Below, piece after piece: positions 3,121 to 25,993 of a stretch of 64,000 nucleotides of DNA (positions are counted from its first letter, which is position 1; each line of letters begins with the position of its first letter). The DNA lies in contig DAOLKO010000017.1 of assembly GCA_035331565.1 (NCBI GenBank), positions 30,832-94,831 on the forward strand, read 5' to 3'. The DNA comes from Blastocatellia bacterium (lineage in GTDB: Bacteria; Acidobacteriota; Blastocatellia; RBC074). The notes below the pieces were generated by a model. It was given only the letters and a program-made list of their open reading frames with translations, was not told where the DNA came from and did not search any database. Position numbers and translations under genes: made by a program.

Positions 3121-4524
3121 TCAAAGAACTTTGCTGATGGCCACGCGAAAGCCCTGATCGTTGCGGCGCAGCGTGGGATGGCCATAATCAATGCGAAAGG
3201 CCGAACGGCAGTTGACGGCCGCGTCCACCCACGAACAACCGCGAATTACGCGCGGACGATCCCAGTGGGCGTGCTTCAATATCAGGCCGCTGAACTTCAG
3301 CGTTTGCTCTTCACCGATTTCGGTTTTCAGCCTGGCAAGAATCTTTTCTTCTCCGACAAACACATAATCCTTGAGCCGCCGCAGTTTGGTCAGCGTGTCA
3401 TCCGGCATCCCCTGCGACCGCAAGACGACCAGCGTCTGTTCGACAATGTTGAAGCCCTGCTCCTGTCCTTCCCACGAAGACCCGTCCGTCGGCGCGCCTT
3501 GATAATTCGTATGCCATTGATCCTGGCACCATTCCCAGACGTTGCCGTACATATCGAACAAGCCGAAAGCGTTGGCGCGTCCCAGACTGCCGACCGGAAC
3601 GGTTTTCTCGCGGTATTCGCCTGCGCCCTGCGTTTTCCAGTAAGGGTGATTGCCGTTGTAATTGACGATGGCCGGCGTGATGGTTTCGCCGAAAGCATAA
3701 GGCAGGGAGCTTCCGGCGCGGGCGGCGTATTCCCATTCCGCTTCGGTCAACAGGCGATATGCTCTGCCGGTTCGACGTTCCAACCGGGCGCAGAATTCCT
3801 GTGCTTCAAACCAGGAGACGGTTTCCACCGGCAATTTGTCGTCGTCTTTGAAAGACGATGGATCGGGCTTCAATTCAATTTTGACTTTCGGCCATTGGGC
3901 GACGACGCGCCATTGTTCCCGCGTGATTTCGTATTTGCCCGCCCAGAATTGCGCGACCTTCACCTGATGCAGCGGACGTTCGTTTTCCGGGCCGAGTTCG
4001 CCGGACGCCGCGCCCATGGTGAAAACGCCGCCGGGAACTTCCACCAATTCCAGCCAGATGTCCGAATCCAGCGGTTCGCGAAAAGTCTTCACGGTCTTTT
4101 CCGGCTCGTCCTTGATCTTGCCTCGCCTGTCGTAAAGCGCCGTTTTGAAGCGGATCGTTTCCAGTACCGGCGCAATAGTTTTCGGAGTTTTGCCGGCCGT
4201 AGGCGCGGGCGGAACAGAGTCGGCGTCCAACGTCAGCACAGGCGGCACTGTCGGCGCTGAAACCAAAACCGGCGCAAGCGCGATGGAAGAAACGTCCGCA
4301 ATTTCCGGCAACGAAATCGGCTTAGGTTTTGCGGCAGACGTTTCGGCAACTTTTACGGCTTTGGGTTTTGAAGTCTTTCGTTCAGGGACGAGGATCACGC
4401 CGCCTTGCTTTTGCGCCGCGCCGAACCAACACGAACCGAGCGCGAACAGTAAACACAGCGTCCAGGCGCTGCGAACGGCGAGTCGCCGAAGATGTGTTTG
4501 GGCTTTCATGAAAGGAATCTCCAA
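3121..4524 (-). CDS. FGE-sulfatase (SUMF1-like) domain protein, copy B; N-terminal TM/signal, Pro-rich linker; ~75-aa insertion inside the FGE-like domain
   Basis: FGE-sulfatase domain hallmarks (WLELVEVPGGVFTMG, RVVAQWPK, GNVWEWCQD, RGCSWVDAAVNCRSAFR...GFRVA). Alternative start at ATG 4509. Paralog of 6646..7866. Confidence 0.8.
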   Translation of the reverse strand: MEIPFMKAQTHLRRLAVRSAWTLCLLFALGSCWFGAAQKQGGVILVPERKTSKPKAVKVAETSAAKPKPISLPEIADVSSIALAPVLVSAPTVPPVLTLDADSVPPAPTAGKTPKTIAPVLETIRFKTALYDRRGKIKDEPEKTVKTFREPLDSDIWLELVEVPGGVFTMGAASGELGPENERPLHQVKVAQFWAGKYEITREQWRVVAQWPKVKIELKPDPSSFKDDDKLPVETVSWFEAQEFCARLERRTGRAYRLLTEAEWEYAARAGSSLPYAFGETITPAIVNYNGNHPYWKTQGAGEYREKTVPVGSLGRANAFGLFDMYGNVWEWCQDQWHTNYQGAPTDGSSWEGQEQGFNIVEQTLVVLRSQGMPDDTLTKLRRLKDYVFVGEEKILARLKTEIGEEQTLKFSGLILKHAHWDRPRVIRGCSWVDAAVNCRSAFRIDYGHPTLRRNDQGFRVAISKVL

Positions 4525-4544
4525 GGTAGGTCTGCCCGCGCGTT

Positions 4545-6512
4545 TCAGTTGCCGGCAAATTTCAAGTTGATGTCGAAAATCAGAGGCTGCGGACTTTCCG
4601 TGTTGCTGACGACGTTAGCCGTTGTGCCGCGTCCGCTGAAATCTTCAATGCTGCCGGGCGCAATTGCGCCGAGTTGGGATTGAAGCGATTTGATCGGCTC
4701 GGGTTGGGATTTCACCTGCCTGACCGCCGCGTCGAAGTTCTCTATTCGATTGCGCGACATCACCACGGTGAATCGCAACTGTTCGCCCGCCGCCAGACCG
4801 CGAATTCTTTGTCCGTTGGGAAAGACGAATTCACGCCCGGCGTCCAGTCGCGCACCGCCGGGCAAAAACGCCGTCAATTGTCCGCTGCGTCCGTCCAGCG
4901 CGAGCAAGTACAAATAACCGTCTGCGCGGGATTTGAAATGAAGCTTGAATTCCCGCGCAGACGGCAGTTCGTGATTCGCAACGGCCAGTGACTGCCCACC
5001 GGTGAATTGCTCGAACCAATACTGCAACTGTTCGGGCACGGGCGAAGGCGAAGCGGCGGGTCGAGTCGGCGCGGGCGCGGGCGGCAATGGTTGCGAAGCC
5101 GTTTTGGTCTCGCTTTGCTGCCACAGCCAAAAAACCAGCAAGATCATCAAAACACTGACCGCAGCCGCAGCCCAACGCGCGCGCGGCAGACGAGCATTTT
5201 GAGTTTTCGGCTTCAGCGTCGGGGGCGGCAAATCTGTGTTTTTTTTCGGCGGAAACACTTCAACCGGCGCTTCGACAGGCAGAGGTTTCTCTTCCCTGCT
5301 CTTTCGCGCGTCTTCCGACTTCGCTGCCTCTGTCCGAAGCGATTTTCCAGCCCGGCCAAGTTCCAGCCGCTGTTGGTCCTGAAGTCGTTCTTCTTCCAAT
5401 TCGCGCAACGCGGCTTGACGGCGGCTTTGCTGCAACTGGCGGCGGCGTTCTTCGGCTTGTTTGCGTTGATGTTCCAGGTCGCGTTGGCGTGCTTCACGAT
5501 GGCGTTGTTCTTCTTCGCGGCGGCGCTGTTCGGCGAGAAAACGTTTCTCTTCATCGCGGCGGCGCTGTTCGGCTTCGCGCTGCTCGTTGGCGGCTATTTC
5601 CTGCTGACGGCGGCGCTCGGTTTCAATTTGAAGCTTGCGCTCTTCCGCCTCACGGCGGCGTTTCGCCTCCGCCTCTGAATCTTGCGCAATGGAAGGGTTT
5701 TCGCCTTCCTGTCGCGCCTGTCGCAAAGCCTCGCGCATGACGTTGGCGCTTTGAAAGCGGGCTTCCCGGTTAAGCGCCAAAGCGCGAAAAATCACCTCGG
5801 CCACGGCTTGCGGCACTTGCGGGTTGAGTTCGTACAGCGGAGTCAGCGGATCGGGCACTTTATAACGCAAGACATCCGCGCGCATTTTGGCGTTGTCAGG
5901 CAATTGGCCCGACAACAGGAAATGCAGCGTCGCACCGAGCGAATATAAATCGCTGCGCGCATCCGTGGCCTCCCCGTTCAACTGTTCCAGCGGCAGATAA
6001 TTCAAAGCCTCCGTCTGAAGCTTGCCCGACGCCGCAACTCCAACGCTCAAGTCCGTCAGAAACAGCGCGCCTTGCGGCGTCAGCTTCAGCGCTTGCGGTT
6101 TGATGCCGCGATGAAAAATCGGCGGTTGCCGGTCGTGCAGGCAATTCAGCGCGTCCAGCAGCCTGTCGGCCCAGTCCGCCACCTGCCGCCAGTCAAATGG
6201 TTTTGCGTCCTTGTTCAACAGTTCGGCCAGACTTTGGCCGGGAATGAATTCGGCTACCAGAAATTGACTACTGCCTTCGATGAAAGAATCCAGGATTTTC
6301 GGCAGCGCCGGATGTTGCAGCTTTGCCAACGCGGCGACTTCTTGTTGAAAGCGTTTGTGAGCTTCAGGCGAGCGGGAAAAAGTTTCCCTGATCTCCACGG
6401 CGGCGGGTTCCAGATGCGTGGCCTCGGCTTCGTAAATAATCGCGGTGTCGCCTTGCACCAGCAGGCGTTTTATCAGATAGCGGGTTTGCAAGAGGGTTCC
6501 ATTCGCCAACAT
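4545..6512 (-). CDS. Predicted pseudokinase (Ser/Thr-kinase fold with degenerate catalytic motifs), ER/K-rich charged helix, TM helix, extracytoplasmic C-terminal domain
   Basis: Paralog of the kinase at 7883..9757 (both begin MLANGTLLQ.RYLIKR). Gly-loop is VQGDTAIIY, VAIK is VEIRE, catalytic loop is HRGIKPQALKL (D to G, N to A), DFG is DLS, APE is LPLEQ. Confidence 0.75.
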   Translation of the reverse strand: MLANGTLLQTRYLIKRLLVQGDTAIIYEAEATHLEPAAVEIRETFSRSPEAHKRFQQEVAALAKLQHPALPKILDSFIEGSSQFLVAEFIPGQSLAELLNKDAKPFDWRQVADWADRLLDALNCLHDRQPPIFHRGIKPQALKLTPQGALFLTDLSVGVAASGKLQTEALNYLPLEQLNGEATDARSDLYSLGATLHFLLSGQLPDNAKMRADVLRYKVPDPLTPLYELNPQVPQAVAEVIFRALALNREARFQSANVMREALRQARQEGENPSIAQDSEAEAKRRREAEERKLQIETERRRQQEIAANEQREAEQRRRDEEKRFLAEQRRREEEQRHREARQRDLEHQRKQAEERRRQLQQSRRQAALRELEEERLQDQQRLELGRAGKSLRTEAAKSEDARKSREEKPLPVEAPVEVFPPKKNTDLPPPTLKPKTQNARLPRARWAAAAVSVLMILLVFWLWQQSETKTASQPLPPAPAPTRPAASPSPVPEQLQYWFEQFTGGQSLAVANHELPSAREFKLHFKSRADGYLYLLALDGRSGQLTAFLPGGARLDAGREFVFPNGQRIRGLAAGEQLRFTVVMSRNRIENFDAAVRQVKSQPEPIKSLQSQLGAIAPGSIEDFSGRGTTANVVSNTESPQPLIFDINLKFAGN

Positions 6513-6645
6513 AAAATTTACTTGTGGAAAGATCGGGGCGAACAGGTCGAAACTGAAAGGCCGGCATTATCCAGAAAGCAGCCGAGGCTGACAATACAAA
6601 TCTTCACGGAAGATTCACTCTCAAAAAATGCCCGACACACAGCCG

Positions 6646-7866
6646 TCAAAAAGGTTTGCCGACCGCGACCCGAAAGCCTTGATCCTTGCGCCGCACCTGA
6701 GCGGTGCCATAAGTCACGCGCCTTGCAGACCGGCAATCAGGCGCGGCGTCTTCATAAGAACCGCCACGAATCACCGGCCCTGCATTTCCGCTCATCCAGG
6801 CAGAGCCATCCGCAGGAGCGCCGTCATAGTTCGGATGCCATCTGTCCTGACACCATTCCACGACATTGCCGTGCATATCGAATAATCCAAATGCATTGGC
6901 TTTTCCAAGACTTCCCACCGCAACTGTTTTCCGGCGTCCTTCCGCCTTGATTTGAAAAGGCCAAAAAGGCTGGCTCCCGTCATAATTCACAATGCCCACA
7001 TTGATGGTTTCGCCGAAAGCGAATGCTGTGGTTGTTGCCGCGCGGGCGGCATATTCCCATTCAGCCTCTGTCGGCAAACGATATTCCCTGCCGGTGGCGG
7101 CGGCCAAACGAGCGCAAAACTCCACGGCTTCGTCCCAGGTAATTCTTTCGGCGGGTAGATTTTTGTCCCCTTTGAAAGCTGACTGATCTTCCAGATTGAT
7201 CTTCACTTTGGGCAGTTCGGCAACCGCACGCCATTGTTCCTGGGTGACTTCAAACTGACCGATCCAGAATTTTTTGATGGCCACTTTATGCACCGGACGC
7301 TCTTCTTTCGTTTGTCCATTGCGGTCGGTTTCCCCTTCCGGCGTCCCCATCAGGAACTCTCCGCCGGGAATCTCCACCATTTCCAACCAAACGTTGTCAT
7401 TGATGTACTCACGATAAAACCTGACGGATTTGGCGCTTTCCTGCGTGATCTTTTCCCGCCTGTCCATCGTCAAGGTCTTGAAGTTAAAGACCTCAATCAA
7501 TGGCGGCGGCGGTTTCGGAATCACCGTTTCGTCAATCAACGGTAAATTTGGAAAGAACCAAGTCCCTTCCCATCGGAAAAAACCTGCCAACCGCGGACGT
7601 TGGCTGTAAGCAATTTCAGGCAAACTGACAGGTGTCGGCGTGAGCAATGGTTTTGGTGTCGGTGATGGAGTTGGCTTCACGGTTGGTTTGGGCGATGGTC
7701 GTGGAGTGGTTTTCGCCGTGGTGGAAGTTTTACCTCCCGGTTTGATTCTGATTCCCTGAGCATCAGCTCGCCCCCAAAAGCTGAAATGAAACAACAAACA
7801 AGCAGCCATGCAGATAGCGAGGGCGCTAAAAACCACGACCAACCTGATCTGCCTTGTCAGTTTCAT
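6646..7866 (-). CDS. FGE-sulfatase (SUMF1-like) domain protein, copy A; N-terminal TM, Pro/Thr-rich linker
   Basis: ORF 6646..8010 trimmed to ATG 7866 (MKLTRQIRLVVVF) with a GGAGGA RBS. FGE-domain motifs (WLEMVEIPGGEFLMG, GNVVEWCQD, RGGSYEDAAPDCRSARR...GFRVA). Confidence 0.8.
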   Translation of the reverse strand: MKLTRQIRLVVVFSALAICMAACLLFHFSFWGRADAQGIRIKPGGKTSTTAKTTPRPSPKPTVKPTPSPTPKPLLTPTPVSLPEIAYSQRPRLAGFFRWEGTWFFPNLPLIDETVIPKPPPPLIEVFNFKTLTMDRREKITQESAKSVRFYREYINDNVWLEMVEIPGGEFLMGTPEGETDRNGQTKEERPVHKVAIKKFWIGQFEVTQEQWRAVAELPKVKINLEDQSAFKGDKNLPAERITWDEAVEFCARLAAATGREYRLPTEAEWEYAARAATTTAFAFGETINVGIVNYDGSQPFWPFQIKAEGRRKTVAVGSLGKANAFGLFDMHGNVVEWCQDRWHPNYDGAPADGSAWMSGNAGPVIRGGSYEDAAPDCRSARRVTYGTAQVRRKDQGFRVAVGKPF

Positions 7867-19567: not shown

Positions 19568-19966
19568 TTAGCTTTCTTCGATAGCCGCGCTGATTTTGCC
19601 TTGATCCGCCTGTTTGGCTTCGCGATAGCCTTGTTTGCCGGCTTCGATAGCAGCGGCAAACTGCGCTTTTTGGTTAGTGATTAGATCTTTGCCGCGCTGC
19701 GTCAGGTCGCCGACAGCCTCTTTGCTGCGCACTCCCAAATCGGCGGCACGCTCAACGCCTGTGTGGTAATAATCGGTGGCGCGTTCGCTAAAGTCTCGTC
19801 CGGTGTCGCGCGCATAATCAAGTCCTTTGCGCGTCGCGTCGGCAATGTCCGAACGAAGCTCGCTGCCCGCTTTAGGAGCAAAAAGCATCGCCGTCACAGC
19901 TCCGATCCCGGCTCCGATCAAAAAGTAAACCAGCTTGTCCCCGCTGCTGCCTTGATTTTCTGCCAT
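19568..19966 (-). CDS. YtxH-like domain protein
   Basis: LIGAGIGAVTAMLFAPKAGSELR matches the YtxH family N-terminal motif. Confidence 0.65.
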   Translation of the reverse strand: MAENQGSSGDKLVYFLIGAGIGAVTAMLFAPKAGSELRSDIADATRKGLDYARDTGRDFSERATDYYHTGVERAADLGVRSKEAVGDLTQRGKDLITNQKAQFAAAIEAGKQGYREAKQADQGKISAAIEES

Positions 19967-20169
19967 AATCTCATCCTCCTATTTTCTAAACCGGCGCGGC
20001 TGTTTGAAGTCCGCGCGACTGTCGTGAAATTCTTCGGCACGAACCAAAATTCGCGCGTCAAATCCCGTAAAACTGCTTGCAACTAAATGAATTTGTTGGT
20101 GATTGAAGCTACTCATCGAAACGTGCGGCACTATAGCATCGGGCCTATGCAACTTCAAGGAAGCCATAA

Positions 20170-20199
20170 TTGACACTGCTCGGCGCGCGCCGCTAGAAT
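20170..20199 (+). promoter_or_regulatory. Sigma-70-like promoter TTGACA-N18-TAGAAT upstream of tatA
   Basis: Near-consensus -35/-10 hexamers read from the sequence, about 20 nt upstream of the tatA start codon. Confidence 0.55.
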
Positions 20200-20218
20200 G
20201 CCTGCAAAGGAGATCACA

Positions 20219-20419
20219 ATGTTTAACTTCATATTTTTGCTCTTGGGACTTGGAATGCAGGAAATGGTGATCCTGCTGGTCATCGTTCTAATTCTGTTCG
20301 GCGGCAGCCGGCTGCCTTCACTGGCCAAGGGACTCGGCGAAAGCATTCGGAATTTCAAAACCGGGATGGCCGAAGCCGAAGCCGAAGACGACAAGAAAGA
20401 CAAAGCCAAAAGCGCTTAA
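20219..20419 (+). CDS. tatA: Twin-arginine translocase subunit TatA/E
   Basis: MFNFIFLLLGLGMQEMVILLVIVLILFGGSRLPSLAKGLGESIRNFK. AAAGGAGA RBS. The ORF track starts 21 nt earlier. Confidence 0.85.
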   Translation: MFNFIFLLLGLGMQEMVILLVIVLILFGGSRLPSLAKGLGESIRNFKTGMAEAEAEDDKKDKAKSA

Positions 20420-20564
20420 CCCTTTTCGCCAGGGATGCGGGCTTCATTAAACGAGGGCGAAGGCGGTGTAAAGACAAGCCGTCGCCTCTCATTCGTTTCC
20501 TGATTCCGGCGGCAATGTATTGCCATAACCCGAGCGCGATAAAACCGCTCAAACTGCCACCGCG

Positions 20565-21902
20565 ATGTCTCGTAAACGCCATCACAGCACTCAGCGCCCG
20601 CGCCGGCAATTCGGTTCGGATCGTTCCTATCAAGCTTATCAAATTGATCTTCCCGCCCCGGCAATTACTCGTACGGAGCTGGTACGTCTGATTCGCGGCG
20701 GCGAAGACACTTATCTTGAACTCAAAGTCCGCTTCAGCAACGTCGAAAAGATGATTGCCGAAATCATCGCGCTGGCTAACACCGACGGCGGCGTGATTGT
20801 CTTCGGCGTCAACGATCAATTGCGCATTGAAGGCGTGGACGACCCTGAAAGCGTCGAAGAACAATTGCGCGACATCTGCGCGCACCAGATTCAGCCGCCA
20901 ATCTTTCCGTACATCAACAAAGTCGCCTTCGACAGCGGACGCCGCGTCGTCGTTCTGGAAGTCGAAGCCGACAATCGCCCGCACCGCACGCTGGACGACC
21001 GTTTTTACCTGCGTGAAGGTGCCATCAAACGCGAAACAACTCGCGAAGAATTGTCCGGCCTTTTCCACGAAAAACACCTGGTTCATTTTGAACAAGTCCC
21101 AGTCTTCCAGGCGCACATCGAAGAAGACATTGATGAGTCGCTGCTGTGGAGTTATGTGCGCGGCGTCAACCCGGGTTACTGGGGCGAAACGTCGAAAGGC
21201 TACCCCAACGACACTGTGCTGCGTGATATGGGACTGGCTGTCAAAATCGGTGAAGATTGGCTGCCGACGGCGGGCGGACTGATGTTGTTCGGGATGAACG
21301 ACCGCCTTGCTCGATTGATGCCGCGCTCCGATATTCAACTAACCCGATTCAGCGGCATTCACAAAAACGGACATCCGTCGCCAATCATTGAACGGGCGCA
21401 TTTACACGGCAATCTGCTGCGGCAATTCGACGGCGCACTGAACTTCATCAAACGTTACGTGGATTTGTGGGACGCTCGGCCTTCGCGCAAAAGCCTGGAA
21501 ACCGATGCCGCCAAACCTGACGCGGCGGCGGAACACCCAATTGCTGGTCGAGCCAATTATCATCGCGGCGCGGTGATTGAAGCCTTGACCAACTTCATCG
21601 CCCACCGCGACCTGAGCACGCGCGACCGGCAAGCGCGCATCAACATTTATGACGACAGCCTCGAATTCATCAATCCCGCGCAGCCAATTGAACTGCCCAT
21701 AGTCTCGCTGCGTTATGGCGTTGCCGCCCCGCCGAATCCACGACTGAAAGCCATCTTCACCAACCGGCATTACGGCACGCTCTCTACACAAGGCGGCATC
21801 CCCATGATTTGCGCCGAAACCATCAACTTCGCCCGCCGCGCTCCCGAAGGTCCAACCCTGACCAACAACGAATTCCGACTGAAACTGCACGGATTACAAT
21901 AA
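20565..21902 (+). CDS. AlbA_2 (Schlafen-like) DNA-binding domain + HATPase_c_4-like C-terminal domain protein (putative regulator / ATP-binding protein)
   Basis: N-terminal LIRGGEDTYLELK...ALANTDGGVIVFGV pattern. C-terminal region typical of RecG-C-like HATPase_c_4. Confidence 0.7.
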   Translation: MSRKRHHSTQRPRRQFGSDRSYQAYQIDLPAPAITRTELVRLIRGGEDTYLELKVRFSNVEKMIAEIIALANTDGGVIVFGVNDQLRIEGVDDPESVEEQLRDICAHQIQPPIFPYINKVAFDSGRRVVVLEVEADNRPHRTLDDRFYLREGAIKRETTREELSGLFHEKHLVHFEQVPVFQAHIEEDIDESLLWSYVRGVNPGYWGETSKGYPNDTVLRDMGLAVKIGEDWLPTAGGLMLFGMNDRLARLMPRSDIQLTRFSGIHKNGHPSPIIERAHLHGNLLRQFDGALNFIKRYVDLWDARPSRKSLETDAAKPDAAAEHPIAGRANYHRGAVIEALTNFIAHRDLSTRDRQARINIYDDSLEFINPAQPIELPIVSLRYGVAAPPNPRLKAIFTNRHYGTLSTQGGIPMICAETINFARRAPEGPTLTNNEFRLKLHGLQ

Positions 21903-22422
21903 AGCTCGACGCGACCGACACGAATGTTGCGCGTTCCACGGGTTCAAGATTAGATTCCCCTTCCATTCAAAAAAAGTCTCACGAGCAGAAATTCAGGCAT
22001 GAGTGAAAAAGCGGAAGCCTCCGCTCTGAGCGCCGACATCGGTGAAGTGCGCCGTTCATTGGCCGGCGAAGTGAAACTGCGTCAGGCAGTCATCAAACCT
22101 TTAAATCAGGCGCTGCGCACGCTTACAGACCCACACAAAAACGCCGTCGCGCTGCACAAAGCAACTCCACCGGCGGAAATGTCGCTGCCGAACGCCTGCG
22201 GCAAATCACATTTCCTGTTCCGGCTGCGCGACCTGGCCTGGGCCAACGGTTACGTCGCCAGCCGCACTGAACTCAGCCCGAAAAAATGCCAGTACGACTC
22301 AACCACGAATTGCAGGCGCAAAACACCGCGCAACTGGCCGACACTTGCGGCGCGCTGTGTCCACCAGCCGCGGCAGCCACTTCGTCAAATCTCTGATTGA
22401 TCTGCTGGCCGAACAGCGCGCC

Positions 22423-22462
22423 GAAGGCGAACGACTGACAGCGCGCCGAAGGCGAACGACTG
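22423..22462. repeat. Tandem duplication of ~21 bp (GCGCGCCGAAGGCGAACGACTG x2)
   Basis: Read directly from the sequence. Confidence 0.8.
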
Positions 22463-22540
22463 TATGATCCGGAAACGTCCAAAACGTGGTGCGCGCTATT
22501 ACGGCACAGTTGGGACAGGCACAGGGCGGCGAATATTAGC

Positions 22541-22560
22541 CAATCTCAAATTTCAAATCT
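22541..22560. repeat. Left copy of an 18-nt direct repeat CAATCTCAAATTTCAAAT (right copy at 23891..23908)
   Basis: Exact 18-nt match; the two copies are 1350 bp apart. Confidence 0.85.
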
Positions 22561-23341
22561 CGAATTCGAGGGAACGTCGCGGTTGGGCGGAGGCGTACGC
22601 GTGATTCTGAGCGAATACGGCACAGGCAAATGTCATTTCTTTGAACTCGCCGCGCAGGAAGCCCTGGAGCGAAACTTCCTGGTCGCCACAATCCAACCGC
22701 GAATGGATGAAGCATCCTTTGCCCGCGACCTGCTATGTTCTACTCCTGACGGATTGCGGATTGCCCAAGCGCCCGACGACGTTCGGCAAGATTGGCACCG
22801 GCGACATGCAAATCACGGTTCGTTTTCGGATTGTGCGCGTCTCACAAATTTCGGCCTCGCGTGCCATCGAACTTGAACGCGAACGCCTGCTGCCGTTCGT
22901 GCCGTTAATGAGCGGCGAACGGAAAGGACTGATTGCCGCGGTCAGAAACCTGCGCAAAGTAAAACTGGAAAGAAAGCGACACGAACTTGGCCTGCATTTC
23001 TCCGTACTTGGCGGGTTGCGCTACAATCCCGAAGGCTTGTTGGACCTGATTGGGAAGCAAGCTATGACTCCACTTGAAGTGCTAAAACAGTCGCCGACCT
23101 ACGACTTTCCGATCAACGAAGGGAAAGATCGTTGGATAGAAGAGGGCCAACAGAGATTCGCTTCTGAACCGCTTCGTCTGATGATTCGTAAAAGGTTCCC
23201 GAAGTTGAACGTCTCGCAAAAGATCAAACGCATTCACAACCCTGCTGTCTTGCAGCAACTCATGCTGGAAATCAACGAAGTGCCGGACGCCGTCGCGCTG
23301 CGCAAACGCCTGGACAAAGCCATTCAATCACAGGAACCCTG

Positions 23342-23857
23342 ATGAACGCCGATTATTCGCATCAAAGGCAGTTGAAAGATAACCTGCTACACGCCTGGGA
23401 TGCTCTGTTTGCGCAGTTCGGGCGGTTCACTGAAATTCAAGCGCAGGCCATCGAACCGCTGCTTGCCGGACAAAATTGTATGTTGGTTTCAGCCACAGCC
23501 AGCGGCAAAACCGAAGCTGCACTCGCGCCGCTGATCGAACTTCTAAAACAAGACAAAAAAGCCGCCGGCAACCTTTCCATTCTTTGCCTGATCCCGACGC
23601 AAGCGCTAGCGCGCGATTTGGCACGGCGACTGGAACAACCGCTCGGCAAACTCGCCTTGCGCCTGCAGGTCAAAACCGGCGACGACACCGCGCTCAATGC
23701 CAATCGCCCGCCCGAACTGTTGTTGACCACGCCGGAGTCTTTCGATTCGCTGCTGACGAAAATGCCGCGAATATTCAAAGACCTGCGCACCGCGCGGCTG
23801 TCACGGAATCCGTTGATGTCGCGGGCTTCGTGCGCACATTCAACGGTCGCAAGATGA
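23342..23857 (+). pseudogene. Truncated DEAD/DEAH-box (Lhr-like) helicase N-terminal fragment
   Basis: Motif I (ATASGKTEA), Ia (PTQALARD) and TTPE are present. No motif II or C-terminal domains; ends after 171 aa. Start overlaps the preceding ORF stop (ATGA). Confidence 0.6.
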
Positions 23858-23884
23858 CGGAAGCCAAAGCTGAGTGAAACCGAA

Positions 23885-24196
23885 ATGAAGCAATCTCAAA
23901 TTTCAAATTTCAGACTTGCCGCCTTGTCGCTGCTTTTCTGCTTGACGTTCAGCGCCGCAACTTTCGCCCGCCAACAACCGGCCAGACCTGTCAACCTCAA
24001 CACAGCTTCCGCTGAAGAGTTGCAAAAGCTGCCCGGCATCGGGCCAAAACTCGCGGCCAGAATCATCGAACACCGGCAAAAACACGGCCCCTTCAAACGC
24101 CCGCAAGACCTCATCATCGTTCGCGGCCTGAGCGCGAAACGCTTCCGGCCAATCGCGCATTTGGTTGTCACGGGCGATCACGAAAAATCCCGCTAA
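23885..24196 (+). CDS. comEA: ComEA-family helix-hairpin-helix DNA-binding competence protein
   Basis: Signal peptide, then VNLNTASAEELQKLPGIGPKLAARIIEHRQKHGPFKRPQDL HhH repeats. The 5' end carries the right copy of the 18-nt direct repeat. Confidence 0.8.
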   Translation: MKQSQISNFRLAALSLLFCLTFSAATFARQQPARPVNLNTASAEELQKLPGIGPKLAARIIEHRQKHGPFKRPQDLIIVRGLSAKRFRPIAHLVVTGDHEKSR

Positions 24197-24295
24197 ACCG
24201 TTATTGAAAGGTCATCGCAGAACACAGAACCAAACACTTAAGTTTCTCAGTGTTCTGCAATGACCTACGTGGCTGGGTTATTTCCGCGTTGCCGC

Positions 24296-25993
24296 TTACC
24301 TGGCCGTGGCTTTACGCGGCAGCTTTTCGTCGCGCATGGCAGCGTTGTACAAAAACGCGGCCATGATCGTCGCCGCCTGTTTCATATCGTCGGCTTGAAT
24401 GCGGTCGAAGACGTCCATGTTGGAATGGTGCGTGCGCGTGTCGTATTCGACCGGGTCTTGAATGAACTGGAAGCCGGGCAGGCCGATGCCGTCAAACGAC
24501 AGGTGATCGGTGCCGCCGGTGTTGGAGATGGTCAGCGTGGTTGCCCCCAGGTCTTTGAAGGGCATCAGCCAGTCGCGGAAGATCGGGCGGACGGCTTCGT
24601 TGCCTTGCAAATACACGCCGCGAATCTTGCCCGTGCCGTTGTCCAGATTGAAATAGGCCGAGAACTTCTCGTAGTCCGGCTTGGTGTTGATTTTGGCGTT
24701 CGGACCTCCGCCCATCATCGCGGCCATTTCGGCTTCGGGCGAACCGTCGTCGCCGCGCGAACCCAAATGCTGTTTGACGTAAGCGCGCGAACCGAACAAG
24801 CCTTGCTCTTCGCCGCTCCACAGCCCCACGCGGATGGTGCGGCGCGGTTGCAGGTTCAAGGCTTTCAAAATGCGCACGGCTTCCATCGCCGCCGCGCAGC
24901 CCGCGCCGTTGTCCGTCGCGCCGGTTCCGCTGTGCCAGGAATCCATGTGCGCGCCAACCATCACGATTTCATCTTTTTTGTCGGTGCCGGGGATTTCACC
25001 AATGGTGTTGTAAGAGTTCAAATCTTCGCCGTGGAATTGCACGTCCAGATTGATGCGCGCTTGCAGCTTTTCGCCGGCTTGCAGCATGCGGATCAAACGA
25101 TTGCAGTGTTCGGCGGCGATGGTCACTTGCGGCAGATTGGCGGGCGCGTCCTTGTCCCATGGGTTCACCTTGCCCATAAACAAGTCCATTATCACTTCCA
25201 TCGGCGCACCATTTTTGACTTCTTTCGGGATCGAAGCGTTTTCCAGAAAGATCGTGCCGCCGTCGCCGGAGCGCGAAGGCGTCAGGAACATCGCCGCGCC
25301 TTCATCCAAAAAGAACTTCAGTTTTTTGGCGTCGAGAATGGCACTTTTGATGAACTCCTGCATTTGCGGATTGGCGGCCATCGCCGCCGGGCCGCCGGAG
25401 CGCGCTTTGGCGGGGTCTTGCGCATCAGCCAGTTGCAGCAGGTCTTTTTCGGTCAACCGCGTGCCGGGCGCGTCAAAGCGGGCTTTGACGTTGCGAACAG
25501 GCGCGCTCAGCACAATCTTGCCTTTCAGTTGGCCTTTGTATTTGGCCAGTTCGGCTTCATCTTTGGCTTCGACATAAACAATGTCCGCCGTCAACGGGCC
25601 GTTGGTTCCCAGCGACCAAGCTTTTGGATATGCGATCAGCGGGATGGCCTGCGGCGCGATGATTTCCGCCGAAAACGATTTCAGCGTCCAGCCGCGTCCG
25701 AATGGCCCCCACGGTTCCAGATGCGCTTCCATGCCCCACTCTTTCATCTTGTCGCGCGTCCATTCATTGGCGCGTTTCAGGTTGGGCGAAGCGGTCAGGC
25801 GCGGGCCGATAACGTCAGTCAAATAGCTCAGGGTTTGCATCACCTGCGAACGGTTCATGCCTTCGTCTTTGATGCGTTCAATGGGATCGTTTGAATTTTT
25901 TGCCTGCGCCTGCTGTTGCTGAGCGTGAGACGGCCAGCCGGTAACGCTCAGCGCAAAAAGCAAAATTGCGACGGCAATTCTGTTGCGAGTCAT
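24296..25993 (-). CDS. Secreted M28-family metallopeptidase (paralog of 71..1738)
   Basis: [38 protein letters not shown]. Lacks the poly-Gly insert. Confidence 0.85.

Follow-up and report, generated by a model that had tools for sequence, protein, structure and literature searches.

A probable deletional remnant of a BrxD/BrxHI-type gene cassette between an AlbA_2 gene and comEA in a Blastocatellia bacterium

A stretch of 64,000 nucleotides (nt) from a Blastocatellia bacterium (GenBank assembly GCA_035331565.1, contig DAOLKO010000017.1), here called the window, carries an intact AlbA_2 gene at positions 20565-21902 and an intact comEA at 23885-24196, and the coding frames between these two genes are fragmentary. 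The question raised by this locus is what stood there and how it came to be broken. A preliminary description, made from the letters of the window alone, took the region for a decayed accessory island with a frameshifted DUF4351-like (Rpn/YhgA-like) gene and a truncated Lhr-type helicase, and explained an exact 18-nt repeat by an insertion into the 5' region of comEA. The fragmentary frames and the decayed island were both recovered here: positions 21903-23884 are, with high confidence, a pseudogenised, presumably non-functional remnant of a five-gene cassette, about 70% of which was deleted (~4.8 of 6.8 kb). The cassette is intact in one relative with the same flanks, and it is absent from the same site in several others.

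The intact copy was found on contig L007 (Logan SRR16085906), a related Blastocatellia contig that encodes protein P0002, the best match to one of the broken genes. Its gene order is YtxH, TatA, AlbA_2 (440 amino acids, aa), a 290-aa protein, two BrxC_BrxD proteins of 427 and 472 aa (ATPases 1 and 2, or BrxD1 and BrxD2), the Rpn-like P0002 of 316 aa, a DEAD+Helicase_C helicase of 698 aa, and ComEA. The cassette occupies L007 2334-9047 with five intact genes of 290, 427, 472, 316, and 698 aa, and the island is ~6.8 kb long. From the AlbA_2 stop to the comEA start there are 1,982 bp in the window vs 6,847 bp in L007. When the two were aligned by blastn, six collinear blocks of 75-87% identity were obtained: window 19678-22205 to L007 6-2555, 22198-22298 to 3401-3501, 22297-22569 to 4272-4522, 22556-22691 to 4905-5040, 22698-23788 to 6271-7397, and 23784-24159 to 8954-9346.

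Five deletions and three small frameshifts separate the window from this intact locus. Through deletion D1 (845 bp), codon ~68 of the 290-aa gene is joined to BrxD1 codon 65 with the reading frame kept, and the junction has microhomology CGGCAAA at 22199-22205; D2 (770 bp) lies inside BrxD1. D3 (~0.35-0.38 kb) runs from a spacer of heptanucleotide repeats (heptads) to BrxD2 codon ~113 with microhomology TTCGAG or AATCTCGAAT, and the start codon of BrxD2 is lost in it. D4 (1,230 bp) joins BrxD2 codon ~154 to codon 91 of the Rpn-like gene, and D5 (1,556 bp) removes the helicase from codon 149 to ~668, with microhomology TGCGCGC. The frameshifts are all in the 3' remnant of ATPase 1, where two deletions of 1 nt (~22358 and ~22473) have a tandem duplication of 25 bp between them. 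No catalytic core is left, neither the D55/E72 region of the Rpn-like protein, nor helicase motifs II-VI, nor the ATPases beyond the Walker A neighbourhood.

The broken arrangement is real. The window is 100% identical to the Blastocatellia contig of another metagenome-assembled genome (MAG), GCA_035338555.1, and positions 21999-23912 are identical base for base, the 25-bp duplication included, in three independent NCBI MAG assemblies and one Logan assembly (SRR3501853). The structure is therefore not an assembly artefact and is fixed in the population. The same assemblies do differ elsewhere, within an M28 peptidase gene from position 24815.

The site without the cassette was also found. In a scan of species-representative genomes for AlbA_2, 24 loci were collected, and the TatA-AlbA_2 pair is kept in all of those that extend upstream of AlbA_2. 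In L009 (84% AlbA_2 identity), L014-L016, L023, and L031, comEA follows AlbA_2 directly, abutting or overlapping, and in L009 and L014-L016 the stop codon of the one gene and the start codon of the other share an ATGA. The search for an empty site that the preliminary description had proposed thus succeeded, but it is the whole cassette that is missing there and not the 1.35 kb between the 18-nt repeats. The 3' flank of the AlbA_2 gene varies among relatives, with comEA, M28, tRNA, cassette, or other genes in this position. The flanks of the L007 island contain similar strings of 12-13 nt, GGACTGCAATAAAC on the left (2215-2230) and GAACTG-AATGAAGC on the right (9060-9080), which match the AlbA_2/comEA overlap of L009 (11345-11365), GGGCTGCAATGAAAC. 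These strings may have arisen as a target duplication when the island as a whole was inserted, with the AlbA_2 3' end GGNCTGCAATGAA as the target. Around the cassette of L011, which follows AlbA_2 but has neither the Rpn-like gene nor comEA, no target duplication was found in the comparison with L010, where the downstream gene is the same and the cassette is absent.

The course of events may be proposed as follows. In an ancestor, the cassette would have been inserted between AlbA_2 and comEA, genes that otherwise abut; in the present population it would then have been eroded by five internal deletions, the loss of single nucleotides at two points, the 25-bp duplication, and the loss of 18 nt next to comEA. 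The microhomologies at the junctions (0-8 nt) are consistent with replication slippage or illegitimate recombination. Because the intact cassette occurs in many unrelated contexts, the intact state is the ancestral one. Compared with L007, the fragments have ratios of nonsynonymous to synonymous substitution (dN/dS) of 0.08-0.30, in the range of AlbA_2 (0.085) and comEA (0.22), which suggests that most of the divergence predates inactivation and that the decay is comparatively recent. In its multiple deletions with short or no microhomology, small indels, tandem duplication, and intact flanking core genes, the locus shows no essential difference from ordinary pseudogenisation of accessory or defence islands. 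It is a well-documented case of deletional decay, unusually reconstructable thanks to the intact syntenic copy, and what is of some interest in it is the cassette from which it derives, together with the family of heptad repeats described below.

Several points weigh against this reconstruction. L007 is the single syntenic intact relative, with ~80% nt identity, and the breakpoints are placed against a cousin and not a true ancestor. The ends of D3 are ambiguous inside repeats, and D2 and D4 have little or no microhomology. The Rpn-like (211/233 aa) and helicase (171 aa) stumps are still open reading frames (ORFs) with low dN/dS. The intact cassette belongs to neither of the two known systems that it resembles, Shango and bacteriophage exclusion (BREX), and its defence function is putative.

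The pieces in the window, all on the plus strand, can be read from left to right. A promoter-like element, TTGCGC-N17-TTAGAT, stands at 21927-21955 and is conserved 5' of the 290-aa gene in seven cassettes from different genomic contexts (the window, L007, L011, L032, L033, L035, and L036). From this conservation it may be a promoter, although it was not detected in a scan for the sigma-70 consensus, which found no promoter; a terminator scan gave fewer terminators than shuffled sequences. Downstream of the element, the Shine-Dalgarno (SD) sequence AAGGAG of the relatives is degraded to ACGAGCAG. Codons 1 to ~68 of the 290-aa gene follow at 21999-22205 (blastn block; tblastn to residues 1-86), and the annotated 133-aa ORF at 21999-22400 is this gene start fused in frame to a BrxD-like fragment by D1. 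ATPase 1, BrxD/SngB-like, is represented by codons 65-98 at 22198-22298 (blastn, 87%), which start just past the Walker A lysine, and by codons 355-427 with the natural TAG (22537-22539) at 22297-22539 (blastn and gapped alignment). The frameshifting duplication in the second piece is perfect, ACAGCGCGCCGAAGGCGAACGACTG x2 at 22413-22462 (Tandem Repeats Finder, TRF, score 100, 2.0 copies, 100%), and L007 has a single copy; a duplication had been reported before, as 21 bp from 22423. The remnant of the BrxD1-BrxD2 heptad tract (AATCTCA AATTTCA AATCTCG ...) occupies 22540-22571, holds the first 18-mer at 22541-22558 and the palindrome CTCGAATTCGAG at 22559-22570, and includes the left end of D3.

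ATPase 2 is reduced to codons ~110-154, with the Walker A GEYGTGKC only, at 22556-22691 (blastn 86%, tblastn 87%). The fragment matches Pfam BrxC_BrxD at 8.8e-05 and, weakly, BrxD of NCBIfam and PADLOC (0.003-0.015) and SngB (0.0044). ORF 22583-22876 carries this BrxD-type Walker A, and it had escaped the preliminary description, as had all remnants of the 290-aa gene and of the two BrxD-like ATPase genes at 21999-22691. The Rpn-like gene, 5'-truncated by D4, retains codons 91-316 and its natural stop at 22698-23342 (homologues, blastn). Its stop (23340-23342) overlaps the helicase ATG (23342-23344) by 1 nt as TGATG, and the same overlap is found in L007 at 6951; the helicase had been correctly seen to overlap the previous stop, and only the ATGA then reported has to be replaced. 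Codons 1-149 of the BrxHI/SngC-like superfamily 2 (SF2) helicase, with motifs I-Ib, are at 23342-23788 (tblastn, 89% to L007 residues 1-149). As described earlier, this is an N-terminal fragment that is then cut off: the DEAD stump stops just short of motif II (VVIDELH in the full-length L007 helicase). The last 30 helicase codons and the natural TGA (23875-23877) are at 23785-23877 (tblastn to residues 669-698, 70%), out of frame with the N-terminal stump. This corrects three gene calls that public MAGs list as 'hypothetical protein' or 'DEAD/DEAH box helicase'. No second copy of the cassette was found in the window by tblastn, and an Rfam scan of 20000-25000 gave nothing at E ≤ 1.

The comEA gene encodes 103 aa with a signal peptide and an HHH_3 domain (Pfam, 1.4e-22). 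A hydrophobic N-terminal segment after MKQSQISNFR and a helix-hairpin-helix domain identify the product as ComEA, although TIGR01259 (57.1 bits, cut-off 152.35) and TIGR00426 (50.9, cut-off 53.1) both stay below the curated cut-offs. At 23878-23884, 18 nt that are present in L007 have been deleted, and the SD-like AAAGAGGAA in front of comEA has gone with them. The stop of the dead helicase is separated from the comEA ATG by only 7 nt, and the initiation of comEA translation may be affected.

What the intact cassette is can be judged from the L007 proteins. In PADLOC, ATPase 1 (427 aa) matched BrxD at 1.5e-35 and SngB at 9.2e-31, with Pfam BrxC_BrxD at 1.3e-47; ATPase 2 matched BrxD at 5.6e-20 and SngB at 4.5e-18, and the helicase matched BrxHI at 5.3e-73 and SngC at 5e-63. 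The best profile matches are to the BREX type 2 pair of BrxD (a DUF2791 ATPase) and BrxHI (an Lhr-like helicase), both recognised among the intact L007 proteins and placed in the same order, ATPase then helicase. The cassette differs from BREX type 2 in that it is stand-alone: in the gene and Pfam tables, none of PglX, PglZ, PglW/PglY, and BrxC was present in nine cassette loci or in the neighbourhood of the window. A search of the literature on DUF2791 yielded nothing relevant. With Shango (SngA, a TerB-domain protein; SngB, an ATPase; SngC, a helicase) it shares an operon of accessory protein, ATPase, and helicase, and the intact L007 proteins include an ATPase of SngB type and a helicase of SngC type. 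It has, however, two ATPase paralogues and not one, and an optional Rpn-like nuclease-fold gene, and in the window everything is fragmentary. The SngC and BrxHI helicases form one clade of defence helicases (PMC12278908).

The stump in the window, ORF 23342-23857, agrees with this placement, with Pfam DEAD at 3.5e-20, PADLOC BrxHI at 1.3e-21, and SngC at 2.2e-16. A ligase-associated DEXH helicase model (1.1e-17) and the Lhr model PRK09751 (5.9e-07) were also matched, both far below their cut-offs. The helicase called Lhr-type at first is probably better assigned to BrxHI/SngC, and would be Lhr-like only in the broad sense of SF2 helicases. The homologues of the stump, all of 98-293 aa, were considered as a stand-alone family of RecA1 domains and rejected, as they are contig fragments or split genes and versions of ~700 aa exist. 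The helicase was called as two ORFs in L005:1426-3537 (154+536 aa) and L006:6001-8113 (290+446 aa), which suggests independent frameshifts or splits in other lineages.

The first gene of the cassette belongs to a family of at least 276 homologue clusters, all labelled 'hypothetical'. The 290-aa family has no match in Pfam or PADLOC; TerB and SngA in particular were sought there at E ≤ 5 with the 290-aa protein and 25 of its homologues, and not found. A profile of the family had no match among PDB sequences at E ≤ 10, and a Foldseek search of the PDB with the AlphaFold2 (AF2) model (predicted local distance difference test, pLDDT, 84.5) revealed no fold match, the best E being 1.1.

The Rpn-like gene was traced by a database search with ORF 22641-23342, which gave ~30 proteins of 300-330 aa, the window product corresponding to their C-terminal two thirds only. 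P0002 (70% identity, 316 aa) is the most similar. Residues 1-90 of the ~315-aa protein are missing from the window copy, and with them D55 and the HxE(72)AQ region (VHIEAQ, with a Q74-type position), both invariant in the full-length homologues. The gene is thus truncated at its 5' end and not frameshifted, as had been assumed. The label DUF4351-like has to be given up as well: Pfam recognised no domain at all, DUF4351, PDDEXK_Yhga, and Rpn included, in the window fragment, in P0002, or in any of 26 full-length homologues. What remains is a collinear, weak match to the Rpn family TIGR01784 of NCBIfam, for P0016 with 20.9 bits vs a cut-off of 52.1 (E 2.6e-4) and for P0002 with E 0.032. The AF2 model has pLDDT 80, and in Foldseek its N-terminal domain was matched, as a domain-only match, to EndoMS/NucS (probability 0.99/0.94, E 0.05-0.2, query TM-score, TMq, ~0.2) and also to MspJI; a profile of the family had no match among PDB sequences at E ≤ 10. 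From the weak profile match and the model, the ~315-aa protein appears to be weakly Rpn-like. It would share with Rpn/YhgA-like nucleases the length, a fold like PD-(D/E)XK in the N-terminal part, with hhhExQ represented by VHIEAQ, and a helical C-terminus, which in some of those nucleases is DUF4351; one homologue from the Joint Genome Institute (JGI) is named 'predicted transposase YdaD'. It differs from them in scoring below the TIGR01784 cut-off, in having no Pfam family match, and in its position bound to the cassette, and the window copy is without the nuclease core.

The position is constant, as the Rpn-like gene stands between BrxD2 and the helicase in five of five contexts examined, the window remnant included, with overlaps of 1-4 nt or a short spacer. 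For this reason it is probably an optional component of the cassette rather than a free-standing Rpn gene. That it is a selfish insertion was considered and dropped, as it recurs at the same cassette junction in four further, mostly different, contexts.

Intact cassettes are also found in unrelated genomic contexts in L006, L032-L035, and L157-L159, and the cassette is stand-alone and widespread in Acidobacteria. BrxD1 is 96% identical between L007 and L011 and AlbA_2 is 74% identical, which indicates that the cassette moved horizontally. It is not catalogued: it is absent from the PADLOC models used and fits neither the Shango nor the BREX definition. By the kinship of its ATPases and helicase, the intact cassette may be an uncatalogued defence system. 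The locus thus points to a stand-alone cassette of BrxD/BrxHI type with an uncharacterised 290-aa partner and an optional Rpn-like nuclease-fold component. The spacer between BrxD1 and BrxD2 is an insertion hot spot, occupied by a BrnT toxin pair in L158 and, in L035, by a 23S_rRNA_IVP gene with hairpins of GGGGCTN heptads on its flanks.

There remains the repeat that had first drawn attention to the locus. The window contains two exact copies of the 18-mer CAATCTCAAATTTCAAAT, at 22541 and 23891, as had been reported, and the match extends to 20 of 21 nt; no further matches with up to three mismatches were found in the window (0.09 expected). The copy at 23891 encodes ComEA residues 3-8 within the N-terminus MKQSQISNF, and it belongs to a heptad tract at 23891-23912 that makes up codons 3-9 (TRF period 7). 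In L007, the spacer between BrxD1 and BrxD2 is 86 nt of ~8 heptads directly after the stop, CC AATCTCA AATTTCA AATCTGA AATCTCG AATCTCG AATCCCA ..., the first 21 nt identical to the window, and comEA starts ATGAAG C AATCTCG AATCTCG AATCTCA. The same spacer in L011 consists of degenerate heptads. The comEA of L029, a locus free of the island, begins MKSAISNLKSQFSN, encoded by a similar heptad tract. As both tracts are at homologous positions in L007 and the comEA tract is present in L029, they are ancestral and not insertion products, and the two 18-mers are best read as pieces of pre-existing (AATYTCR)n tracts, each at its own place. In L007 the direct and inverted heptads of the spacer (4489-4580) form a perfect 16-bp hairpin that ends at the BrxD2 ATG (z = -5.2), and at 22537-22600 of the window this hairpin is collapsed (z = 0.17). 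The L007 hairpin may be a translational or terminator element.

Why the two copies are identical is a separate matter. In each of the two genomes, the spacer and the comEA tract have an exact 18-mer in common, which differs between the genomes, CAATCTCAAATTTCAAAT in the window and AATCTCGAATCTCGAATC in L007 (23/25 over 25 nt), and the orthologous comEA tracts of window and L007 share only 13 nt. This suggests, from two genomes only, either that gene conversion took place or that a duplicated tract was once longer and sequence was lost from it differentially and in frame. An origin of the 18-mer identity by ectopic gene conversion, or by shared descent from such a tract, is compatible with the deletional decay of the cassette and is possible, if somewhat doubtful. 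The pattern within and between genomes speaks for such an origin, but only these two genomes carry both tracts, long chance matches are likelier than in random DNA with so small an alphabet of heptads (AATCTCA/AATTTCA/AATCTGA/AATCTCG), and the same 18-mer recurs in many unrelated metagenome contigs.

Heptads of this kind are common. Related loci with a total length of 440 kb gave a count of about 55 heptad tandem tracts; most are (AATCCGC)n, and inverted pairs are frequent. At least 120 metagenome stretches contain the 18-mer without mismatch, most of them as part of a longer (AATYYNR)n tract in a GC-rich contig, and 47 of the 65 matches in contigs with a GC content of at least 0.5 continue as in-phase heptads. 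At 14150-14190 the window has (GATTGCG)x4.5, which is AATCCGC on the minus strand, at the junction of the minus-strand ORFs 12091-14151 and 14153-15031. L009, L014, L015, L017, L019, L020, L022, and L027 have the AATCCGC unit too, at syntenic positions and elsewhere.

Heptanucleotide short tandem repeats are known as the short tandemly repeated repetitive (STRR) elements of cyanobacteria and as heptad contingency loci such as neuO. The tracts seen here resemble them in their 7-nt tandem units, often in inverted pairs that form intergenic hairpins, and in that one tract is 5'-coding (comEA); they differ in the host (Acidobacteriota/Blastocatellia) and in the units (AATCCGC, AATCTCA ...). Phase variation of neuO is mentioned in PMC13001214. 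The comEA tract has three imperfect units, far fewer than known phase-variable tracts, and in the literature searched no report on heptanucleotide repeats in Acidobacteria was found. It is a speculative and rather unlikely idea that the (AATYTCR/AATCCGC)n tracts of Blastocatellia/Acidobacteriota form a class of repeats not yet described, similar to STRR elements, and take an active part in shaping gene content, as intra-operon insertion hot spots, seeds of deletion (D3), substrates of ectopic conversion, and an on/off switch of comEA. Such switching by unit number is conceivable because the comEA tract lies in the coding sequence and its units of 7 nt are not divisible by 3; if it occurred, changes of unit number could switch DNA uptake on and off.

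Two readings compete more directly with the decay of the cassette. One takes the remnant to be alive, with the 133-aa fusion of the 290-aa gene start to BrxD1, the 211-aa Rpn-like C-terminal domain, and the 171-aa helicase RecA1 stump kept as small proteins, for example regulators or decoys. The promoter-like element is indeed kept, the arrangement is fixed in several samples, and the C-terminal Rpn-like and N-terminal helicase pieces run for 1,091 nt without stop or frameshift at dN/dS 0.14-0.19. All catalytic motifs are gone, however, the SD of the first gene is degraded, the other short helicase matches are contig fragments or split genes beside a Helicase_C partner, and a low dN/dS is expected if the decay came late in comparison with the divergence from L007 (dS 0.4-0.8). 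Survival of the pieces as functional proteins is therefore considered improbable.

The other is the model of the preliminary description, by which the 1.35 kb between the 18-mers was inserted in the 5' region of comEA with an 18-nt target duplication, or owes its present arrangement to recombination of one repeat with the other. An exact 18-mer twice, 1,350 bp apart, is unexpected by shuffling, and D3 ends inside the first tract. But in L007, where the tracts take the same relative positions (spacer and comEA 5' end), the BrxD2, Rpn-like, and helicase genes stand intact between them over 4.5 kb. What lies between the 18-mers in the window aligns collinearly with this cassette, and the comEA tract is already there in L029, which has no island. 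Neither a transposase nor an integrase is present, and the motif belongs to a common family, a finding that the preliminary description itself had named as speaking against its model. An insertion of this segment is accordingly very improbable; all that echoes it faintly is the end of D3 in the heptad/hairpin spacer and the possible 12-13-nt duplication around the whole L007 island. A heptanucleotide repeat family can yield deceptive 'target duplications'. The least likely explanation, that the frames were broken by chimeric joins or indel errors and the true genome has intact genes, would suit a metagenome-assembled source and the two related contigs that end in or near the region, but it can be practically dismissed in view of the four identical assemblies and of five collinear kb-scale deletions, an untypical mode of error.

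Some features of the flanks are added. The AlbA_2/Schlafen-like gene at 20565-21902 has a HATPase_c_4 tail and matches the N-terminal region of the PADLOC model of a prokaryotic Argonaute (pAgo) fusion (5.8e-13). The window has two paralogues of the M28 peptidase family, at 107-1714 on the plus strand and 24296-25993 on the minus strand, with 56% identity. Every difference among the public MAGs of this population starts at 24815, inside the second M28 copy, and contig L002 is strongly divergent from this position on, which suggests recombination between strains or a chimeric contig end.

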